64,000 bases of DNA from Gammaproteobacteria bacterium (GTDB lineage: Bacteria > Pseudomonadota > Gammaproteobacteria > Pseudomonadales > Pseudohongiellaceae): NCBI GenBank assembly GCA_051252515.1, contig JBPOFS010000004.1, positions 228,880-292,879 on the forward strand, given 5' to 3'. Position numbers and translations under genes: made by a program. Shown here piece by piece: positions 6,627 through 47,286 of this stretch (its first letter is position 1; each line of letters starts with the position of its first letter). The notes below the pieces were generated by a model that saw only the letters and a program-made list of their open reading frames with translations, was not told the origin of the DNA and did no database searches.

Positions 6627-8114
6627 ATGAAATACGCATTGCTCAGCACGAACCCCGCCTCTAAAGCCACAGATTGCCTTGTCGTTGGTGTTTGGACAAA
6701 AGGCAAACTTACCGCACAGGCGAGTGATCTGGACAAAGCGACTGGCAAGGACATTAGCCGCATTGTGGCAACAGGGGATATCAGCGGCAAAATTGGTGAG
6801 GCCCTAATCGTGCATCCCTCTGCAGGCAAAGCAAAACGTCTGTTATTGGTCGGCTGTGGCGAAGAAAGAGCACTCGATGCCCGTGCCTATCGCAAGATCG
6901 TTACCGGCGCGATCAAGGCGCTTCTAAAAGCAAACGCCAAAAATGCAGTATTCACCCTAGCAGAACTGCCCGTCAAAGACCGTGATGCTTCATGGGCAGT
7001 CACTTTATTGGTACAAGAGTGTGAAAACGCCAACTATCAATATGACGCGACTAAGAGCAAGAAGAAGCCTGCCTACTCTCTGTCGACTGTAAGCCTTAGC
7101 ACGCCTAAAGGCGCCCAGAAAAAAGCCATGACAGAAGCCTTGAAAGCTGGCACCGCTATTGGCCTAGGCATGAACATTGCCAAAGAGCTTGGCAATCTAC
7201 CTGGCAATATCTGTACCCCCACGTATCTTGCCAACACCGCCAGCAAACTCGCGGGAAAATACAAATCTATTAGCACGAAGATCCTTTCTGAAAAACAGAT
7301 GGAACGCCTAGGCATGGGCTCTTTACTCTCGGTCAGCGCGGGCTCTAAAGAAGAAGCCAAACTGATCGTCATGGAATACAAAGGCAACGCCAAAGCCACT
7401 AGCCAGCCCTATGTGCTCGTCGGAAAAGGCATCACATTCGACACCGGCGGCATCAGCCTCAAAGGCGGCGCGGGAATGGACGAAATGAAATACGATATGT
7501 GTGGCGCCGCAAGTGTTATAGGCACGATGAACGCTGTGGCCGAGCTTGGCCTAAAAATCAATGTTGTTGCCGTAGTCGCTGCCGCCGAAAACATGCCGAG
7601 CAGCACTGCTACCAAGCCTGGCGATATCGTGACCAGCATGTCAGGTCAAACTATCGAAGTATTGAACACTGATGCAGAAGGACGTTTGGTATTGTGCGAC
7701 GCACTCACTTACGTAGAGCGCTTCAAACCGAAAACCGTTATCGATATCGCGACTCTCACAGGCGCCGCAGTCGCAACGTTCGGAGACCAAACTACGGCAT
7801 TACTGAGCACCCACCAGCCATTAGCGGACGAGCTGCTCAGCATCAGCCAAGACACTTTAGATTTTGCATGGCAGCTACCGCTGTGGGATGAGTACCAGCC
7901 ATTGCTAGAAAGTAATTTTGCAGACATCGCGAATATTGGTGGGCCAAGAGCAGGCACAATCACAGCGGCATGTTTCTTATCGCGCTTCACGAAAAAGTAT
8001 CATTGGGCGCATTTGGATATCGCGGGAACGGCGTGGATGTCAGGCGCACAAAAAGGCGCAACGGGCCGTCCAGTCCCATTATTAGTAGAGTACTTACGAC
8101 GTCAAAAAGCTTAA
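6627..8114 (+). CDS. pepA: Leucyl aminopeptidase (M17)
   Basis: 495 aa with the M17 signature NTDAEGRLVLCDAL and metal-ligand blocks (VGKGITFDTGGISLK, MKYDMCGAA). Confidence 0.95.
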   Translation: MKYALLSTNPASKATDCLVVGVWTKGKLTAQASDLDKATGKDISRIVATGDISGKIGEALIVHPSAGKAKRLLLVGCGEERALDARAYRKIVTGAIKALLKANAKNAVFTLAELPVKDRDASWAVTLLVQECENANYQYDATKSKKKPAYSLSTVSLSTPKGAQKKAMTEALKAGTAIGLGMNIAKELGNLPGNICTPTYLANTASKLAGKYKSISTKILSEKQMERLGMGSLLSVSAGSKEEAKLIVMEYKGNAKATSQPYVLVGKGITFDTGGISLKGGAGMDEMKYDMCGAASVIGTMNAVAELGLKINVVAVVAAAENMPSSTATKPGDIVTSMSGQTIEVLNTDAEGRLVLCDALTYVERFKPKTVIDIATLTGAAVATFGDQTTALLSTHQPLADELLSISQDTLDFAWQLPLWDEYQPLLESNFADIANIGGPRAGTITAACFLSRFTKKYHWAHLDIAGTAWMSGAQKGATGRPVPLLVEYLRRQKA

Positions 8115-8202
8115 TCGGCACTTCGTTGCGACCCCGGCTATCAATACGGGGGGCATCGTTGGGTATTGTGCCAGCCTTTGAGTCTAGCGTTAAGTTTAGG
8201 GT

Positions 8203-8245
8203 CACAGGACTCGCCGTGAACCCATCCTTGGGGGCTCAGCTGATG
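8203..8245 (-). repeat. Partial, inverted copy of the structured repeat family seen at 14994-15450
   Basis: The reverse complement reads ...CATCAGCTGAGCCCCCAAGGATGGGTTCACGGCGAGTCCTGTG. This matches the unit core GAGCCCCCACGGACGGGTTCACGGCGAGTCCTGCG. The internal small hairpin is deleted. Confidence 0.8.
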
Positions 8246-8336: not shown

Positions 8337-8777
8337 CTAAGCCCTCTTAATAACTGAACCTACCATGTCATGTCTAGCAGCCAGCATCGCTGGCGAGTAT
8401 CTCCAAGGATCTTTATAGCCGAGAGCTGCCGCACAGGCTTCAGAGCAAAACCACTTCTTACTCCTGCCCTCGATAGGCCCAACGAAGCCAATCAGACCTT
8501 TTACGTCATAATCCTCACCTAGATGAAGCAGAAACCAATCCCGCGCAGCAGCCTCGTCTGTAAAAGGCAGATCCACCAGATCCCATCGATCAGGTGAGAG
8601 ATCGATCAGCTTAATCCGTACTCCCCCATCAAGCTTGCTCGAGGAAGCACATTCAGCCTCACCACTGTCCAATTGGTAACTGAGAACAAGTTCGCAATGA
8701 CTGTAGGAAGATCTAGTCCACCATTGCACCATCCGGTCGAACAAGCGTTTGCCTCCTTTGTAAAAAGCTAGTTGCAT
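8337..8777 (-). CDS. Phage-associated hypothetical protein, possibly a permuted papain-like (YiiX/NlpC-P60 superfamily) hydrolase
   Basis: 146 aa. A His-containing block (SYSHCELV) precedes a Cys block (WFCSEACA), as in permuted papain-fold enzymes. It lies 1 nt downstream of the tail-fibre-assembly-like gene. Confidence 0.4.
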   Translation of the reverse strand: MQLAFYKGGKRLFDRMVQWWTRSSYSHCELVLSYQLDSGEAECASSSKLDGGVRIKLIDLSPDRWDLVDLPFTDEAAARDWFLLHLGEDYDVKGLIGFVGPIEGRSKKWFCSEACAAALGYKDPWRYSPAMLAARHDMVGSVIKRA

Positions 8778-8778
8778 T

Positions 8779-9300
8779 TCAGTCTCCGAATACCAGTGGC
8801 CAGCCAGCCTTAATATCTATCGAGCGCGGATCAGTTGATGCGAGTACCTGGGCAATTAAACTTTCAGCGTAGGCAAACAATGCTGAATCTTGCGTTGCTG
8901 CTGATGTAAATATCTGTCCAGCAAGGGTAGGCGTCATATCTACTTTCGAGCCATCCATGGTTTTCCATTTCAGTCCAACCGGTATATTCACCCCCATCAT
9001 CACAAGCCCGATTTGCTGAGTTCTAGAAAAAGTGTCCGAATGGAACCACTTACCTGCTACCGGGAACCCGCCAAATTGATTCTTGTGGTCACGCAACTTC
9101 TTTATATCCTCCCAAATGCCATCGAGGTCTGAGTTCGATAACTGTGGTGGCAAGAAGTCACCTTCTTCAACATCACTGATGGTGTACTCGCCGATCACCG
9201 TGAATGGGAACGTGCTGCCATCACATAGTAAGGCCGCAGAGAGCACTGAAACCTGCTTGAATGGGCCGAATACGTTTTCTCCAGCGGTGACCTTTTTCAT
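8779..9300 (-). CDS. Phage tail-fibre-assembly-like protein (DUF4376-like)
   Basis: 173 aa. The block KWFHSDTFSRTQQIGLVMMG resembles the DUF4376 domain of tail-fibre accessory proteins. It has a TAATG overlap with the upstream fibre fragment. Confidence 0.45.
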   Translation of the reverse strand: MKKVTAGENVFGPFKQVSVLSAALLCDGSTFPFTVIGEYTISDVEEGDFLPPQLSNSDLDGIWEDIKKLRDHKNQFGGFPVAGKWFHSDTFSRTQQIGLVMMGVNIPVGLKWKTMDGSKVDMTPTLAGQIFTSAATQDSALFAYAESLIAQVLASTDPRSIDIKAGWPLVFGD

Positions 9301-9782
9301 TAGATGACCCTCTGCTTATTAACTACCGTCATATAGGGATTCGACTGCATGATTGAATTCATACCCCAGCGTGCGGAAGGACTAATTTTGTCGCCCGAGC
9401 CATTTCTTTGCACCACGTAATCCCCCATATCCCACCCGCCTCCCGCAAAGTAAGAATTGGGATATCCAGCTGATAACGTACCTCTTGTTTTTTCGCCTAA
9501 CAGTCCACTAGTGGGAAAATCATACAACCCATGGCTAGGAGTTAACTGAGCGCTAGAATAGTCATTACCAACGAGCCCCCCACCAAACTCTACTTTAGGA
9601 TCGCCACCTACAGAACTCACGGAAAATCCATGCAAGGTCGCAGATTTTACCAAGCCGCCAAGCCACTTCCCGTTCTTCCCGCCAAACGCAACCATTGAAG
9701 TAGCCCCTGACCTGCAAACCTCGGTGAAAGTACCGGCTACAGCTGTGCCTGATGAATTAGCAAATGGGCGCGTGACAATAGT
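9300..9782 (-). pseudogene. 5'-truncated phage tail-fibre gene (C-terminal about 160 codons only)
   Basis: The Gly/Ser-rich fibre-like sequence is open upstream of the listed ATG (9695) as far as a stop at 9783-9785 (...NSSGTAVAGTFTEV...). No plausible N-terminal shaft, baseplate genes or start context are present. Confidence 0.45.
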
Positions 9783-9956: not shown

Positions 9957-11276
9957 ATGATTAAGAAATGTATATTCGCTTTAGTCGCAAGCGTCAGCTG
10001 TATAGTAGGATCAGGTACAATTGCTAGTGAACTTTCGATTGAAGACCCTTCAGATAAATTTCCCGATACCTATGTTAAAGACCGGTACTTCGTAGGATTC
10101 GAATACCCAAACAGCGCTGAAGAAAGGATTGTTGATCTTCCGAATTTTGATCTCAAAGAAAAAGTACCTTTTGGTCAACACTCGTCAGGCCAGAGTGGGC
10201 AAGAGATTGCAGAGCGAATTGGCCTTAAAGGTGAGGTGTTATCGATCTATGACACTTTGAACACAATTTATATTTCGGCGACTAGAGAGGAAGCGCTTAG
10301 GTTAGAAAAAGACCCAAGAGTGCTTTATGTTGAACAAGACATTATCGCATCTGGCCAGGCTACTCAATATAGTCCGGGTTGGGGGCTAGACAGACTCGAC
10401 GAATCTGGCCCAGGGACTCCAGATTCAACTTACAACTACTCCTACACTGGAGCTGGACAGACAATCTACGTTTTAGACTCTGGCCTAAGTGTTTCTCTTT
10501 CCGGAGTGATCGCTGAGTTTGGTTCCCGTGCCTCTGTCGTTTACGACTATATGGGATTGAGTGGTAATGATTGTCATGGTCACGGGAGCTCAGTTGCAAG
10601 CGTTGCTGCTGGAGCAACTCACGGGGTGGCAAAAGGCGCAACAGTAGTAATTGCAAAAATTACCATTGATACAGTAGATGGTTGTACCAAAAGTTCGTAT
10701 ATAAGCACTTCAGTTGACGCACTTAACTGGTTAGCTACAAATGAAGATCCAGGAACCATTATTAATTGGAGTAACGGGCTAAGTGATCCACTAGGGGTTT
10801 GTTCACCAGTGTACAGTGTTGCCCTAGAAAATGCATTTGGTGCCACATACGCTGCGGACATGCTAAATGTGGTGGCTGCTGGTAACGATGGGTGTAACAC
10901 AGCTGACTACTCACCAACAGCGTTGGCAGATACATTTGTAGTTGGCGCTACGTCCGCTCCTACGACTACTTACGATCCCAAATGGTATTTTTCTCGCACT
11001 GGTACCAATATAGCTACTTTCGCCCCTGGAGAAAACGTTGCTGTAATGGATATGTATGGTAGTGGCACATCGAAGAATGGAACTTCGTTTTCCGCACCGT
11101 ATGTAGCTGGTATTATGGCCGTGGTCTGTGAGGCATCCGGGACAGATTGCGCGACTTTAAGTACTGCGACAAAATATGCTTCTTTTAAATCATCTGGGTC
11201 TACAGGTACAGTAACAGAAATAGGAGGAGGCACACTTATAGGTGCAACTTCACGATTTATTTGGCAACAATGGTAG
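9957..11276 (+). CDS. Secreted subtilisin-family (S8A, proteinase K-like) serine protease with I9 propeptide
   Basis: 439 aa with a signal peptide and an I9-like propeptide (TIYISATREEALRLEKDPRVLYVEQD). The catalytic triad blocks are IYVLDSGL (Asp), DCHGHGSSVASVAAG (His) and GTSFSAPYVAGIMA (Ser). A GGAG sits 9 nt upstream of the ATG. Confidence 0.9.
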   Translation: MIKKCIFALVASVSCIVGSGTIASELSIEDPSDKFPDTYVKDRYFVGFEYPNSAEERIVDLPNFDLKEKVPFGQHSSGQSGQEIAERIGLKGEVLSIYDTLNTIYISATREEALRLEKDPRVLYVEQDIIASGQATQYSPGWGLDRLDESGPGTPDSTYNYSYTGAGQTIYVLDSGLSVSLSGVIAEFGSRASVVYDYMGLSGNDCHGHGSSVASVAAGATHGVAKGATVVIAKITIDTVDGCTKSSYISTSVDALNWLATNEDPGTIINWSNGLSDPLGVCSPVYSVALENAFGATYAADMLNVVAAGNDGCNTADYSPTALADTFVVGATSAPTTTYDPKWYFSRTGTNIATFAPGENVAVMDMYGSGTSKNGTSFSAPYVAGIMAVVCEASGTDCATLSTATKYASFKSSGSTGTVTEIGGGTLIGATSRFIWQQW

Positions 11277-11332
11277 GCGAGTGATAAATTCTAGATTCGT
11301 TAAAAGGAAGTTAATTTAAAAGGAGATATATT

Positions 11333-11860
11333 TTGACAATCAAAAGCATTCTTTTTCTTGGAATTGTATCAATAGCTACAGTTACATCGTTTGCTGCCGA
11401 ATCACCTGAGTATTCCACAGGGAAGTTGTTGCTACCGGCTGTTGACGCAGATGGAAAGCCTGGTTTCTTTCAAGATGTAGTGATCGAGGCTGCTGGTGAA
11501 AATCTTTGGCGGGTCTCTGAGCTTTATGAAGGGATCCCAATTAAACAAATTGGCCAGGTTGAGTTGATTAAAAGCAGCTCAATGCCAGTGCAAGTCTTTC
11601 TGAAAATATCTGGCTCAATTACTGGTTGTAATGGGTTTGGTAGAGTTAGTACCGTGTTAGGTGGTAGTGCATTCAACTTAATTGCCTATTACGAAGTTGA
11701 TAAATTACCGCCTGGTGAAATTGTATGTGGACAATCCTTAACACCGTACAGCGAAACTATTCCTCTACCGGTTTACGGATTGGATGCTGGCACATACTCA
11801 TACGACGTAAATGGTGAGTTTTCTGGAACATTCACACTTGATAGCAAAAATACGCTGTAG
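11333..11860 (+). CDS. Small secreted protein of unknown function (two Cys, beta-rich)
   Basis: 175 aa with a TTG start 6 nt after a strong AAGGAGA. It has a signal peptide (ATVTSFAAE) and lies 57 nt downstream of the protease. A strong terminator follows. Confidence 0.65.
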   Translation: MTIKSILFLGIVSIATVTSFAAESPEYSTGKLLLPAVDADGKPGFFQDVVIEAAGENLWRVSELYEGIPIKQIGQVELIKSSSMPVQVFLKISGSITGCNGFGRVSTVLGGSAFNLIAYYEVDKLPPGEIVCGQSLTPYSETIPLPVYGLDAGTYSYDVNGEFSGTFTLDSKNTL

Positions 11861-11883
11861 CTAAAAAGTTGTGAAAAATTTAA

Positions 11884-11915
11884 GGGCCAGCATCAAATTG
11901 ATGTTGGCCCTTTTT
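11884..11915 (+). terminator. Rho-independent terminator of the protease module
   Basis: GGGCCAGCATCAA / TTGATGTTGGCCC stem (one G-T pair) followed by TTTTT. Confidence 0.85.
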
Positions 11916-11946
11916 CTTAACAATTAATTGTAAAGGCTACTCGACA

Positions 11947-11965
11947 GATGGGTTCACGGCGAGTC
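11947..11965 (+). repeat. Core fragment of the structured repeat family
   Basis: GATGGGTTCACGGCGAGTC is the exact reverse complement of 8208-8226, and it matches the core of the 14994-15450 units. Confidence 0.7.
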
Positions 11966-12311: not shown

Positions 12312-13787
12312 TTGGGAAACTCCAGAACTATGATTAATTACAATGATTGGAAAACCAAAGATGTATCTGTTGCTAGCCTCTCACTAGATCCCTTGAATCC
12401 AAGAATAGCGGAAGCTGAGGAGAACCTCTCGCAGAGGAAATTAATCGAATACCTGCTTGAGTACGATCAGGTATATGAGCTAGCAAAGGGCATTGTTGAG
12501 AAAGGGTATTTCCCTACGGAAGCGTTGATTGGGGTCGTAATTGAAGATAAAAAAATAATTCTGGAAGGCAATAGGCGATTAACTGCTCTAAAGCTACTTG
12601 TCAATCCAGATTCTGCGCCGCAGAGTTATAAGAAAAAGTTTAGAAGCCTATCTGATCGCGTTGATCTATCCTTAATAAAGACAGTCAGAGTGGTGTTTGC
12701 ACCTAGTCGCGAAGCTGCTGCTCCCATGATTTTAGCCAAACACACCAGCACTCAGGTTAAGAGCTGGAGTCCAATAATGCAGGCTAAGTTTTATAAACAG
12801 CTGCTTGACGACGGGGTATCTGTAAAAGAACTTTCAGCTCAATATTCAATCACTCCCTCTCAAATAAAGTCGTTTCTTCAAGTCTATGTTATGTACATGG
12901 TTGCCTGTTCTTTAGATCTTCCAGAAGAGATAAAGGATCGGGTTCATGATAGCCGCGAATTTCCAGTTTCGACTCTGAATCGAATTATCTCACAACCAGG
13001 AACACAGAAATTCCTTGGCATTGAGTTTGATGAAGATAACCTACTTGTTGGGAAGGTAAAGCAAGAAGAGTTTAAAAAGGGCTATGCGAAAATTGTAACT
13101 GACATTGCCACAGGCACTGTTGACTCTCGTACTCACAACAAGGCAGATAGCATAAGTAAATATATCAGTGAGCTTGACGAGGACTCTAAACCGAACTTAA
13201 GACGAAAAGGTACATTTACATATCACTCATTGACTGGCGACCCTGAACCTCAGAAAGTTAAAGCAGCGACATCTGCCAAGAAATCGATAAAATCTACTCG
13301 CACAAGTCAATCTGTTATACCTATTGGAGTTAAATGCCAATTAAATGATCGACGAATAAACAATGTGTTTAATGAGTTGAAAAAACTTAAAGTTGCTACT
13401 CATCCAAACTCGAGTGGTATTATGCTCAGAGTCCTGTTGGAGATGTGTGTTGGCTACTATTTAGAACAAGCAGGACTCCTAAATGGGTTATTGGCTAAGC
13501 ATAGAACAGGGAATCGGCCAAAGGGCAATGATTGGGCACCAACTCTTAAACAGATGCTAGGCTATCTGTTAAGCTCAGATGTCCAAATTGACATTACTCC
13601 ACTGACGGTAAAAGCCATTGGAAGATTACTTAATGACACAAACATCTTCTCTGCAGATACTTTAGATTTCTATGTTCACAATCGTAGGTATAGTCCAACT
13701 GAAGAGCAGCTTCGTGCATTTTGGGACTCGCTGTCAGAGGTGTTTGATTTGATTCTAGTAGAGCCGGTATCTAAGAAAAATGAATAA
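12312..13787 (+). CDS. ParB/Srx-fold N-terminal domain + HTH + uncharacterised C-terminal domain protein
   Basis: 491 aa (TTG at 12312, alternative ATG at 12330). ParB-type boxes are LSLDPLNPRI and IILEGNRRLTALKLL. An HTH-like segment reads VSVKELSAQYSITPSQIKSFL. The C-terminal ~250 aa have no motif I recognise. It overlaps the Dam gene by 8 nt. Confidence 0.7.
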   Translation: MGNSRTMINYNDWKTKDVSVASLSLDPLNPRIAEAEENLSQRKLIEYLLEYDQVYELAKGIVEKGYFPTEALIGVVIEDKKIILEGNRRLTALKLLVNPDSAPQSYKKKFRSLSDRVDLSLIKTVRVVFAPSREAAAPMILAKHTSTQVKSWSPIMQAKFYKQLLDDGVSVKELSAQYSITPSQIKSFLQVYVMYMVACSLDLPEEIKDRVHDSREFPVSTLNRIISQPGTQKFLGIEFDEDNLLVGKVKQEEFKKGYAKIVTDIATGTVDSRTHNKADSISKYISELDEDSKPNLRRKGTFTYHSLTGDPEPQKVKAATSAKKSIKSTRTSQSVIPIGVKCQLNDRRINNVFNELKKLKVATHPNSSGIMLRVLLEMCVGYYLEQAGLLNGLLAKHRTGNRPKGNDWAPTLKQMLGYLLSSDVQIDITPLTVKAIGRLLNDTNIFSADTLDFYVHNRRYSPTEEQLRAFWDSLSEVFDLILVEPVSKKNE

Positions 13788-14664
13788 CTCGCACAATCGA
13801 TACGCAAGTCCTTTAAGGTACCCTGGCGGAAAATCCGTACTATATGAGTTCCTAGCCGAGGTCATCGAAGACAATGGTTTACAGGACGGGGTTTATGCAG
13901 AAGCATATGCAGGCGGAGCTGGTGCTGCGCTAAAATTGCTTTTTTCAGAGCATGTAGGTTCAATCGCAATTAATGATGCGGATTTATGTGTATATAGCTT
14001 TTGGAAGGCTGTACTAGACACTCCGGAAAAATTTATTAGGTTAATTGAGAAAACTCCCGTCACAATCGGGGAGTGGCACAAGCAACGCAAGATTTACGAC
14101 AACCCAAGTTCGCGATCTTGTCTCGCAGTGGGCTTTGCCACATTCTTCCTTAATCGATGCAACCGTTCTGGGATTTTAATGAATAGTGGCCCTATTGGTG
14201 GGTACGGACAAGAAGGTCGGTGGTTGCTAGATGCGAGATTCAATAAGGAAGATCTGATAAAAAGGATTGAAAAAATACAGTTGTATAGAGATCGCATTGC
14301 AGTGACCAACCTAGATGCAATCGACTTTCTCGAAGATATTGCTTCTAAAAACCCCCAAAGTTCTAAAGTGTTCGTATATCTGGACCCGCCCTACTACGTA
14401 AAGGGTAGCAGCCTATACATGAACCACTATCAACACGAAGACCACGTAAAGTTGGCAAAATTTATAGGCATTGAGAGTCGATTCAAGTGGGTAATGTCAT
14501 ACGACAATTGCAAGCAGATTAACGAGATTTACGAATCATATAGAAGAATTGCCTTCAATCTTTCATATAGCGCACATACTGCTAAAGTTGGAAGTGAGCT
14601 ACTTATATACAACGAAAGCCTCATAATTCGTGAAGAGACAGAGACTTTACCCGTTGCTTGTTGA
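13780..14664 (+). CDS. Dam-family (D12 class, alpha-type) N6-adenine DNA methyltransferase
   Basis: 294 aa. LRYPGGKS matches the Dam WAGGK block, AEAYAGGAGAA is the FxGxG AdoMet motif, and VYLDPPYY is the catalytic DPPY motif. Confidence 0.88.
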   Translation: MNNSHNRYASPLRYPGGKSVLYEFLAEVIEDNGLQDGVYAEAYAGGAGAALKLLFSEHVGSIAINDADLCVYSFWKAVLDTPEKFIRLIEKTPVTIGEWHKQRKIYDNPSSRSCLAVGFATFFLNRCNRSGILMNSGPIGGYGQEGRWLLDARFNKEDLIKRIEKIQLYRDRIAVTNLDAIDFLEDIASKNPQSSKVFVYLDPPYYVKGSSLYMNHYQHEDHVKLAKFIGIESRFKWVMSYDNCKQINEIYESYRRIAFNLSYSAHTAKVGSELLIYNESLIIREETETLPVAC

Positions 14665-14773
14665 GTTTCATGAGGTGCAACTCGGTTTCAATATAGTCAT
14701 CCAGAACTGTCCGGTTTCATCCCGAATAGTCCAGTTATCTTGGTTTCCAGTGTGAGTTTATCTAGTCTTGTTT

Positions 14774-14810
14774 CACTCAGCAGCCGCATCCCTGCGGCTG
14801 ATGGTCCTGG
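14774..14810 (-). repeat. Partial inverted copy of the structured repeat (small-hairpin part)
   Basis: CACTCAGCAGCCGCATCCCTGCGGCTGATGGTCCTGG is the reverse complement of the unit segment AGGACCATCAGCCGCAGGGATGCGGCTGCTGAG. Confidence 0.75.
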
Positions 14811-14993
14811 GCCCCTAAACTTAACGCTAAACTCGCACGATGTCGCACTCTTCAATATCGCTGAAACCCTAAAATCTATTCGAAGCCCTCTCACTTTGTC
14901 CTTAAGCTCAGCATCAATGCAGAGACTTATCAGTGAACTCACCCCTTAAATCTTCTCGTTAAACTAAAAGTCCGCATGCTTAAAGAAACCCGT

Positions 14994-15450
14994 CGCCAAA
15001 CTTCCCTCAAGTCCAGAGGCTGGTGCTGGATTCAGGATCGAAGGACCATCAGCCGCAAGGATGCGGCTGTTGAGCCCCCACGGACGGGTTCACAGCGAGT
15101 CCTGCGATTCTGAAGCCAGCACCAGACCCGCACTCCGCCAAACCTTCCACAAGTCCAGAGGCTGGCGCAGGCTTCAGAGTCGAAGGACCATCAGCCGCAG
15201 GGATGCGGCTGCTGAGCCCCCACGGACGGGTTCACGGCGAGTCCTGCGATTCTGAAGCCTGCACCAGACTCGCACTACGAAGCACACCCACTACCACCGA
15301 TCGCCAAACCTTCCACAAGTCCAGAGGCTGGTGTTGGATTCAGGATCGAAGGACCATCAGCCGCAAGGATGCGGCTGTTGAGCCCCCACGGACGGGTTCA
15401 CGGCGAGTCCTGCGATTCTGAAGCCAGCACCAGACTCGCACTACGAAGCA
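14994..15450 (+). repeat. Tandem array of three ~145-165 bp structured palindromic intergenic repeat units (REP/MITE-like)
   Basis: The units start near 14994, 15135 and 15302. Each has about 21-nt outer arms (CTGGTGCTGGATTCAGGATCG ... CGATTCTGAAGCCAGCACCAG). These enclose an 8-bp hairpin CAGCCGCA-AGGA-TGCGGCTG and the core GAGCCCCCACGGACGGGTTCACGGCGAGTCC. Confidence 0.9.
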
Positions 15451-15560
15451 CTCAAACTCATACGTAATTTCCCCATCAATCGGCAAGCCCCAAACACCCA
15501 AACTGCGTTATACTCAACGATCACTTTCAAACCCACTAGAAATCATAGTTGCAGCATTCA

Positions 15561-47054: not shown

Positions 47055-47098
47055 TCGGGTCGTCCCGCTAATTAACTACAGTACAAGGGTCGTCCCCT
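47055..47098 (-). promoter_or_regulatory. Guanidine-II (mini-ykkC) riboswitch
   Basis: The minus strand reads uuaGGGG-ACGA-CCCUug, then an 18-nt linker, then CGGG-ACGA-CCCG, about 16 nt before the sugE ATG. The SD (AGGA) lies just 3' of hairpin 2. There are two tandem hairpins with ACGR loops. Confidence 0.75.
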
Positions 47099-47286
47099 AA
47101 CTAGAGGGCGTACGTTAACATAGAGTGACCGCGGTTGGTCAAGAGGCTAAAGCGTACTTCAGAATCGTTTCCATCGCGGCAATACCGCGTCCAAACACCG
47201 ACATCAATATTAAGAGAGCGAAGGAACCAGGCCTTTTTCTAAAAAGGTTAAAATGCCCCCTTTCACTCTACTCCCCTATAAATCAC

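Follow-up and report, generated by a model that had tools for sequence, protein, structure and literature searches.

The 64,000-nucleotide (nt) stretch analyzed here, hereafter the window, comes from contig JBPOFS010000004.1 of a Gammaproteobacteria bacterium (Pseudohongiellaceae; assembly GCA_051252515.1). Between its pepA and valS genes lies a pair of genes that, judged on sequence, almost certainly represents PD-λ-5, a two-gene anti-phage system, in an intact copy gained by horizontal transfer. The open reading frame (ORF) listing contains the two overlapping plus-strand ORFs at the coordinates given in a preliminary description of this DNA, including their 8-nt overlap. Gene A (12330-13787, + strand) encodes 485 amino acids, and gene B (13780-14664, + strand) encodes a 294-amino-acid α-class D12 N6-adenine DNA methyltransferase. 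The preliminary description gave the first ORF 491 amino acids. We place the start of gene A at ATG 12330, not TTG 12312, because a database protein that is 99% identical to its product (P0001) is also 485 amino acids long and the homologues start at this ATG; in the alignment, all of them begin MI(D/N)Y.KW. The in-frame extension from the TTG (12312-12329, + strand) is probably untranslated. The gene B ATG (13780) sits 8 nt inside gene A, where the overlap reads ATGAATAA and the wider junction ...AAGAAAAATGAATAACTC...; as read from the window, the gene B start within the end of gene A is AAAAATGAATAACTC. The overlap makes translational coupling plausible in the window copy, which is as far as the earlier term “co-translated” can be carried, for junctions vary among the homologous loci examined, from a 2-nt to a 56-nt gap. 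A strong terminator-like hairpin (11882-11912, + strand; 14-bp stem, 7 GC pairs, T-run) closes the upstream gene at 11333-11860, and the A-B pair is therefore its own transcription unit. We found no convincing σ70 promoter candidate upstream of gene A.

The assignment to PD-λ-5 comes from profile comparisons that cover both proteins nearly end to end. The gene A product matches the PADLOC model PD-Lambda-5_A (PDLC03998) with an E value of 1.4e-68, residues 15-481 aligning to positions 4-463 of a 466-position profile, and 24 of the 25 PADLOC models listed for it (26 matched overall) are PD-Lambda-5_A. The gene B product matches PD-Lambda-5_B (PDLC04018) with an E value of 6.6e-116, residues 7-288 on positions 3-280 of 291. 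The gene A product also matches PHROG 9592 over its full length, and the window copy retains every residue that is invariant in the family. As expected for PD-λ-5, the two genes adjoin each other on one strand, arranged as an operon. General-purpose models see much less: Pfam and NCBIfam gave no match in the gene A product, and a generic D12 methyltransferase domain alone in the gene B product.

PD-λ-5 was found by functional selection and validated as a broad anti-phage system from Escherichia coli ECOR7 (Vassallo et al. 2022, Nat Microbiol, PMC9519451). The founder consists of two genes (RCQ13837.1 and RCQ13838.1; ∼2.46 kb) labeled “ParB/HEPN, methyltransferase,” and it affected the plating of 9 of 10 phages (PMC9519451). 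Its cloning required a Δmrr host (PMC9519451), which implies that the founder methyltransferase is active and makes non-Dam marks. In the HHpred table for the founder, ParBc is matched with 96% probability at residues 6-89 and DUF4145 with 36% at residues 388-418 (PMC9519451). ParB-HEPN fusions, as well as operons that join a HEPN gene to genes for a ParB nuclease and a DNA methylase, had been catalogued computationally in 2013 (Anantharaman et al., PMC3710099). The module is thus not undescribed, as had first been supposed; it was published in 2022 (Vassallo et al.) and has dedicated PADLOC models. The related statement that no defense type has an effector made of a ParB fold, a helix-turn-helix (HTH), and an unknown domain also falls, since PD-λ-5 is one and ParB-HEPN fusions were already on record. 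The functional guess of the preliminary description, defense of a restriction-modification (R-M)-like kind with self DNA marked by the methyltransferase and unmodified DNA sensed or attacked by the ParB-like protein, agrees with the one published for PD-λ-5, where phage protection is supported experimentally and the mechanism is inferred. In the searchable literature we found surveys alone, and no biochemical mechanism for PD-λ-5.

The AlphaFold2 model of the gene A product (predicted local distance difference test score [pLDDT] 90.4) resolves into a ParB/Srx N-domain (residues ∼1-125), a ParB-type HTH/helical domain (∼127-230), a small α/β domain (231-302), a disordered linker (∼303-335), and an all-helical C-terminal domain (341-475) that carries the invariant R367 and H450. 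In Foldseek searches, the first ∼280 residues match KorB, ParB-CDP, Noc, and Spo0J with E values of 7e-6 to 1e-4. The top structural match is KorB, a transcriptional repressor, and sulfiredoxin is also among the matches, which places A in the ParB/Srx superfamily. The ParB boxes that the preliminary description had picked out are real and are the best-conserved residues in the family, with D20, N23, and R25 (LDPxNPR) and E79-G80-N81-R82-R83 unchanged across 64 homologues. In a more divergent set, at 22 to 37% identity, the N-terminal half keeps N23, R25, E79-R83, H138, and W146 invariant and the C-terminal domain keeps R367 and H450, but D20 varies. A profile of residues 1-235 aligns to Spo0J sequences, with EGNRRLAALKL opposite AGERRLRASKL (4umk) in box II and R127 opposite the arginine of ENIQR in box III. 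The stretch previously called HTH-like aligns to the parS-binding HTH of Thermus Spo0J.

The C-terminal domain is well predicted when modeled alone (pLDDT 93.8; predicted template modeling score 0.88). The last ∼250 amino acids had been said to carry no motif that could be named, which was nearly right and missed a sub-threshold resemblance to DUF4145, a family of the HEPN clan. DUF4145 was matched weakly by 5 of 25 C-terminal domains, with a best E value of 7.7e-4; the matches listed individually lie below the gathering score and cover the first long helix only, which is the same helix that gives the signal in the published founder. Among the non-significant PDB Foldseek matches, HEPN proteins stand, by their descriptions, at ranks 2, 3, and 22 (5yep_C, 7bxo_G, and 8xeh_D); ranks 1 and 8 (2jpu and 1wwp) we take to be HEPN as well. 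A profile search of the domain against PDB sequences found nothing, and Pfam applied to 33 divergent A-family members returned sporadic HTH calls and no bridge from the C-terminal domain to HEPN. On these sequence resemblances, the HEPN assignment is weak. A profile search with the C-terminal domain reached 2,032 clusters at 50% identity (E ≤ 1e-3), and the best 150 of these matches all have the same architecture or are fragments of it. That R367 and H450 are invariant even at 22 to 37% identity argues for a catalytic domain rather than one for mere dimerization.

The gene B product bears out the Dam/D12 hallmarks reported before, passing Pfam PF02086 (MethyltransfD12) at 59.8 bits (cut-off, 22), and both its motif I (AYAGGAGA) and its motif IV (DPPY) are intact. 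It also matches an adenine methyltransferase of known structure (PDB 7m6b_B) with an E value of 3.4e-13. Its score against TIGR00571 (dam) is 53.5 bits, below the cut-off of 114.85, so B is a D12-class enzyme outside the Dam orthologue group, and GATC specificity cannot be assumed.

A scan of a genome collection with the 64-sequence alignment gave 80 loci, the best 80 of at least 533 relatives. Counting the 75 loci with at least 900 nt after gene A, a tblastn search with the gene B product found a D12 methyltransferase directly downstream of A on the same strand in 72. The three exceptions have shortened A genes, among them L058, whose gene A is interrupted by an insertion sequence (IS) element. 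The A-B loci span Proteobacteria, Acidobacteriota, Planctomycetota, Actinobacteria, Bacteroidota, and one archaeal metagenome-assembled genome (MAG). More distant relatives of A, beyond the best 80, may differ in linkage. No parA neighbor was seen in the window or in loci whose neighboring genes were examined. The preliminary description had named homologues lacking a methyltransferase, or lying beside parA, as the pattern that would overturn its defense reading, and the neighborhoods show the reverse. We rejected a reading of A as a partition protein in view of the lack of ParA in the loci examined, the obligate methyltransferase linkage, and the different C-terminal domain.

Some loci depart from the plain two-gene form. 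One of the exceptions, L063 (7902-11779, Acidobacteria MAG), has a shorter A relative of 370 amino acids with no C-terminal domain match and no methyltransferase, near genes for a 5-hydroxymethyldeoxyuridine (5-hmdU) DNA kinase helical domain and MazG_C (thymidine hypermodification); this recalls ParB-dependent thymine dioxygenases reported in 2026. In L074 (8001-12560, Mycobacterium kyogaense), and also in L077-L079, there is an actinobacterial PD-λ-5 variant with extra genes, in the order A (505 amino acids), methyltransferase, a ParB-like paralogue (350 amino acids), and a 354-amino-acid protein without a Pfam match. The paralogue keeps the LDxxNPR and EGNRR boxes and is without the C-terminal domain. 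This variant may be a four-gene subtype. The idea that the A protein is split in Actinobacteria was rejected, as L074 has a full-length A and its second ParB-like gene is the paralogue. Two further candidates were set aside: a conserved third gene after B, for which the ∼175-amino-acid downstream ORFs of two loci proved mutually unrelated and occur nowhere else, and matches in P2-like phages (Wphi gp98 and others), which share the ParB N-terminal part alone and have different partners.

The cassette is mobile, as its phage, prophage, and plasmid contexts and its low GC content and third-codon-position GC content (GC3) show. Its closest relative among the best 80 loci, at 70 to 72% amino-acid identity, lies in a Mu-like prophage of a Pseudohongiella MAG, together with GemA, Mor, and DUF3164 genes. 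Elsewhere it adjoins an integrase in the temperate Marinobacter phage AS1 and a recombinase on a conjugative Kosakonia plasmid, and it also occurs on chromosomes in small islets, where in one case a PIN toxin-antitoxin pair is the neighbor. The blastn similarity of the window to the Pseudohongiella copy (L001/L086; 66% identity over 12329-14775) is confined to 12318-14775; the mobile unit is therefore the two genes plus ∼110 bp, the 3′ tail of the cassette (14665-14775, + strand) being still similar by blastn to the prophage copy. The low GC content of the pair, noted earlier, is confirmed at 0.405 for gene A and 0.423 for gene B, whereas pepA has 0.511, valS 0.490, and the window without the island 0.489. 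GC3 is 0.36 and 0.42 for the two genes, compared with 0.54 for pepA and 0.55 for valS.

A blastn search of 5,426 E. coli genomes with the Kosakonia plasmid homologue returned Dam-like methyltransferases with OLD/AAA “ATP-dependent nuclease” genes, and no PD-λ-5. At two E. coli chromosomal loci, one in an integrative and conjugative element and one in an integrase-flanked islet (L084, 2930-5579, and L085, 2924-5636), methyltransferases related to the Kosakonia B are paired with an “ATP-dependent nuclease”/AAA ATPase gene (∼575 amino acids), not with a ParB-like gene. It thus seems that a single lineage of methyltransferases joins up with different effectors.

The pepA-valS island that holds the cassette is bracketed by a ∼157-nt repeat with internal inverted repeats. 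At the left border, just 3′ of pepA (stop at 8114), a partial inverted copy occupies 8167-8240 (inverted repeats I1, I2, I4, and I7), with the repeat core matching at 8205-8223 on the minus strand. At the right border, a repeat block at 14776-15458 consists of a partial inverted copy (14776-14847) and then three tandem ∼157-nt units (14994-15458) before valS; the repeat search of the window resolved these into families D1, D2, and I1-I12. A 22-nt repeat fragment (11944-11965) immediately precedes the PD-λ-5 operon. Five occurrences of the 19-nt core were counted in the 64 kb, all of them around the island, where 0.02 are expected. The cassette ceases to be homologous to its Pseudohongiella relative precisely at the repeat (14775/14776), and the repeat could be a REP/MITE-like element (repetitive extragenic palindrome or miniature inverted-repeat transposable element) or an insertion hot spot.

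Three adjacent minus-strand ORFs at 8337-9695 encode a 146-amino-acid phrog_1128 protein, a 173-amino-acid DUF4376/tail-protein homologue, and a 131-amino-acid product without a family match. The ORFs at 8337-9300 match DUF4376 and phage PHROGs, including tail-protein families, so the “phage debris” of the preliminary description was aptly named. The island has no integrase, capsid, or terminase gene, and this is therefore a prophage remnant, not an intact prophage. A second low-GC3 unit (0.34) at 9957-11860 encodes a subtilase-family S8 protease (439 amino acids, with a predicted signal-like N terminus) and, downstream of it, a 175-amino-acid protein with a hydrophobic N terminus; the unit seems to have arrived independently of the phage tail remnants, whose GC3 is 0.47 to 0.51. 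Neither an Rfam family nor a tRNA was found in the cassette or its vicinity, and the window as a whole has no tRNA. The sole Rfam family above threshold in the window is a guanidine-II (mini-ykkC) riboswitch at 47055-47101 on the minus strand (35 bits; gathering score, 32).

What might this pair of proteins do? The most likely function is R-M-like self/non-self discrimination, and PD-λ-5 identity combined with such a mechanism is very probably the best overall explanation of the locus. We infer the mechanism as four steps. First, B would act as an N6-adenine DNA methyltransferase that marks a short site across the host genome. Second, A would bind DNA via its ParB-type HTH, with the ParB/Srx domain as a nucleotide-dependent switch, and methylation by B would keep A off host DNA, or inactive on it. 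Third, A would engage incoming unmethylated phage DNA and probably oligomerize there. Fourth, the C-terminal helical domain (R367/H450) would be activated as the effector, most plausibly as a HEPN-like nuclease, halting the infection. A precedent for this domain logic exists in proteins of the GmrSD/BrxU/SspE type, whose C-terminal nuclease is under the control of a ParB/Srx NTPase domain. As a whole, the four-step scheme is tentative, and we would put its chances a little short of even. A more specific and rather unlikely version would make A a methylation-sensitive, nucleotide-gated ParB-type clamp that loads on unmethylated foreign DNA, like ParB at parS, and whose accumulation switches on an unclassified all-helical catalytic domain, one with the R367/H450 dyad and not a canonical HEPN. 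Such a system would be R-M-like without a classical restriction-endonuclease fold.

Several observations weigh against this interpretation, at the level of both identity and mechanism. Membership in PD-λ-5 rests on PADLOC profiles built from that family and not on a pairwise alignment to the ECOR7 proteins. In ParB, the GERR glutamate and the E and N of box III are needed to bind and hydrolyze CTP. In box II of A, an invariant asparagine (N81) replaces the catalytic glutamate of GERR, and in box III, L and A124 replace E and N, R127 alone being kept. With these residues replaced, canonical CTPase activity cannot be assumed, and on this sequence comparison the nucleotide dependence of A is uncertain. 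No recognized DNase fold was found in A by Pfam or by Foldseek with the whole model and the C-terminal domain. The AlphaFold and Foldseek analysis that the preliminary description had proposed for the C-terminal part returned, beside a confident helical model, no significant structural neighbor (best E value, 1.8 in the PDB and 0.87 in BFVD); its HEPN-type matches have E values of 1.8 to 6.3 and probabilities of at most 0.16. The canonical HEPN motif, Rx4-6H, is absent: the consensus round the invariant H450 is S-x-D-x-L-D-x-F-V-H-N, with no R at −4 to −6, and R367 lies in another helix.

An alternative reading is a plain Type II-like R-M system: the ParB/Srx domain itself would be the DNA nickase or endonuclease, the HTH would recognize the site, the C-terminal domain would dimerize or regulate, and B would protect host sites. 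ParB/Srx proteins can nick DNA, with ATP as a negative switch, at least as the work of Maindola (2014) is cited in PMC12839542, and Osa and other ParB/Srx proteins have been reported as nickases or endonucleases. Anantharaman et al. (2013, PMC3710099) counted ParB among four R-M endoDNase folds. The pattern of conservation fits as well, in that the most conserved block of A is box II EGNRR plus D20/N23/R25 and methyltransferase linkage is near-universal. However, the invariance of R367 and H450 equals that of the ParB boxes, and a domain with a structural role alone would hardly account for it. The nearest structural neighbors of the N-terminal half (KorB, ParB, and Noc) are non-nucleolytic clamps and repressors, and we identified no metal-binding acidic cluster typical of DNases. 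We regard this alternative as possible, though distinctly on the unlikely side.

A different prospect is that A serves B as a DNA-loading cofactor or regulator, either as a KorB-like operon repressor or as a ParB-type activator on double-stranded DNA (dsDNA), and that the pair is an epigenetic or anti-restriction cassette of mobile elements. Phage thymine dioxygenases are activated on dsDNA by ParB homologues (PMC13229309), the shorter A relative in L063 adjoins 5-hmdU DNA kinase and MazG_C genes, KorB is the top structural match, and phages and plasmids carry the cassette. However, the homologous operon of E. coli, when cloned by itself, gives protection from 9 of 10 unrelated phages, which a modification-only cassette would not. 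Moreover, the 5mYOX-associated ParBs have no DNA-binding domain and end in a ParB dimerization domain (PMC13229309), whereas A has an HTH and a different C-terminal domain with the R/H pair. We consider a cofactor or regulatory role improbable. That a mobile element has left the pair behind as a decaying remnant without function is more improbable still: the island does hold three phage tail-region gene remnants with no integrase, the window has no tRNA, and decayed copies exist elsewhere (e.g., the IS-interrupted A of L058), but here both ORFs are full length and match their profiles end to end, the family-invariant residues are all kept and the methyltransferase motifs intact, and a 99%-identical copy occurs in an independent public dataset (P0001).

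For annotation, the locus should be labeled PD-λ-5, and it adds a non-enterobacterial copy in a small pepA-valS islet. Its interest lies in how the family works more than in this locus. The family is large (2,032 clusters), spread over many phyla, and essentially always paired with a Dam-like methyltransferase, and we found no published mechanism for it. Three of its features are now well defined, namely a sensor half resembling ParB/KorB, the degeneration of the CTP motifs, and a C-terminal domain of orphan fold whose R/H pair is invariant, and these supply concrete residues to mutate. Should the clamp-type mechanism prove true, it would extend ParB-fold biology into R-M-like immunity.

How does the pair compare with systems already known? 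Classical Type II R-M systems are set apart by their nucleases: searches with Pfam, NCBIfam, PDB sequences, and Foldseek found no PD-(D/E)xK, HNH, GIY-YIG, or PLD nuclease here. Like ParB/Spo0J, Noc, and KorB, A combines the N-domain and HTH fold with an NPR in box I, G-x-R-R in box II, and the box III arginine. Unlike the ParB-CTPase clamps, it has N for the catalytic E in box II and a box III without E and N; it has neither a ParA partner (in the window and the loci examined) nor a ParB-type C-terminal dimerization domain, and it carries additional α/β and helical domains and is tied to an obligate partner, the methyltransferase.

A shares with GmrSD, BrxU, and SspE the established plan of an N-terminal ParB/Srx nucleotide-binding sensor, a C-terminal effector, and a modification-dependent decision. 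Those DUF262 proteins, which combine a DGQQR motif with an HNH/DUF1524 nuclease, act against modified DNA or detect phosphorothioate. A has instead EGNRR and an all-helical C-terminal domain without HNH, and Pfam finds no DUF262 or DUF1524 in it. The cognate methyltransferase beside A implies attack on unmodified DNA. The theme of a ParB protein, a methylase, and a helical putative RNase is shared with the HEPN-containing R-M-linked systems (Anantharaman et al., PMC3710099), from which A differs in having no Rx4-6H motif and no significant structural similarity to HEPN. Lactococcal AbiR (AbiRi-iii plus the LlaKR2I methylase) is also a phage defense system; it has a ParB-like subunit, depends on a DNA methylase, and is toxic when the methylase is missing (PMC13064643). 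Compared by description, AbiR differs in having three genes and a borrowed R-M methylase, with an SF2 (superfamily 2) helicase/endonuclease protein as its effector.

Set against the PD-λ-5 founder, the window copy resides in a bacterium of ∼49% GC and in a degraded pepA-valS islet instead of a prophage, and it is known from sequence alone, whereas phage protection is known for the E. coli system. Otherwise the two are alike: each is a two-gene operon of about 2.35 to 2.46 kb with the same gene order and mobile-element carriage, and each has a ParB N-domain with a weak DUF4145/HEPN signal in A and a D12 methyltransferase in B.

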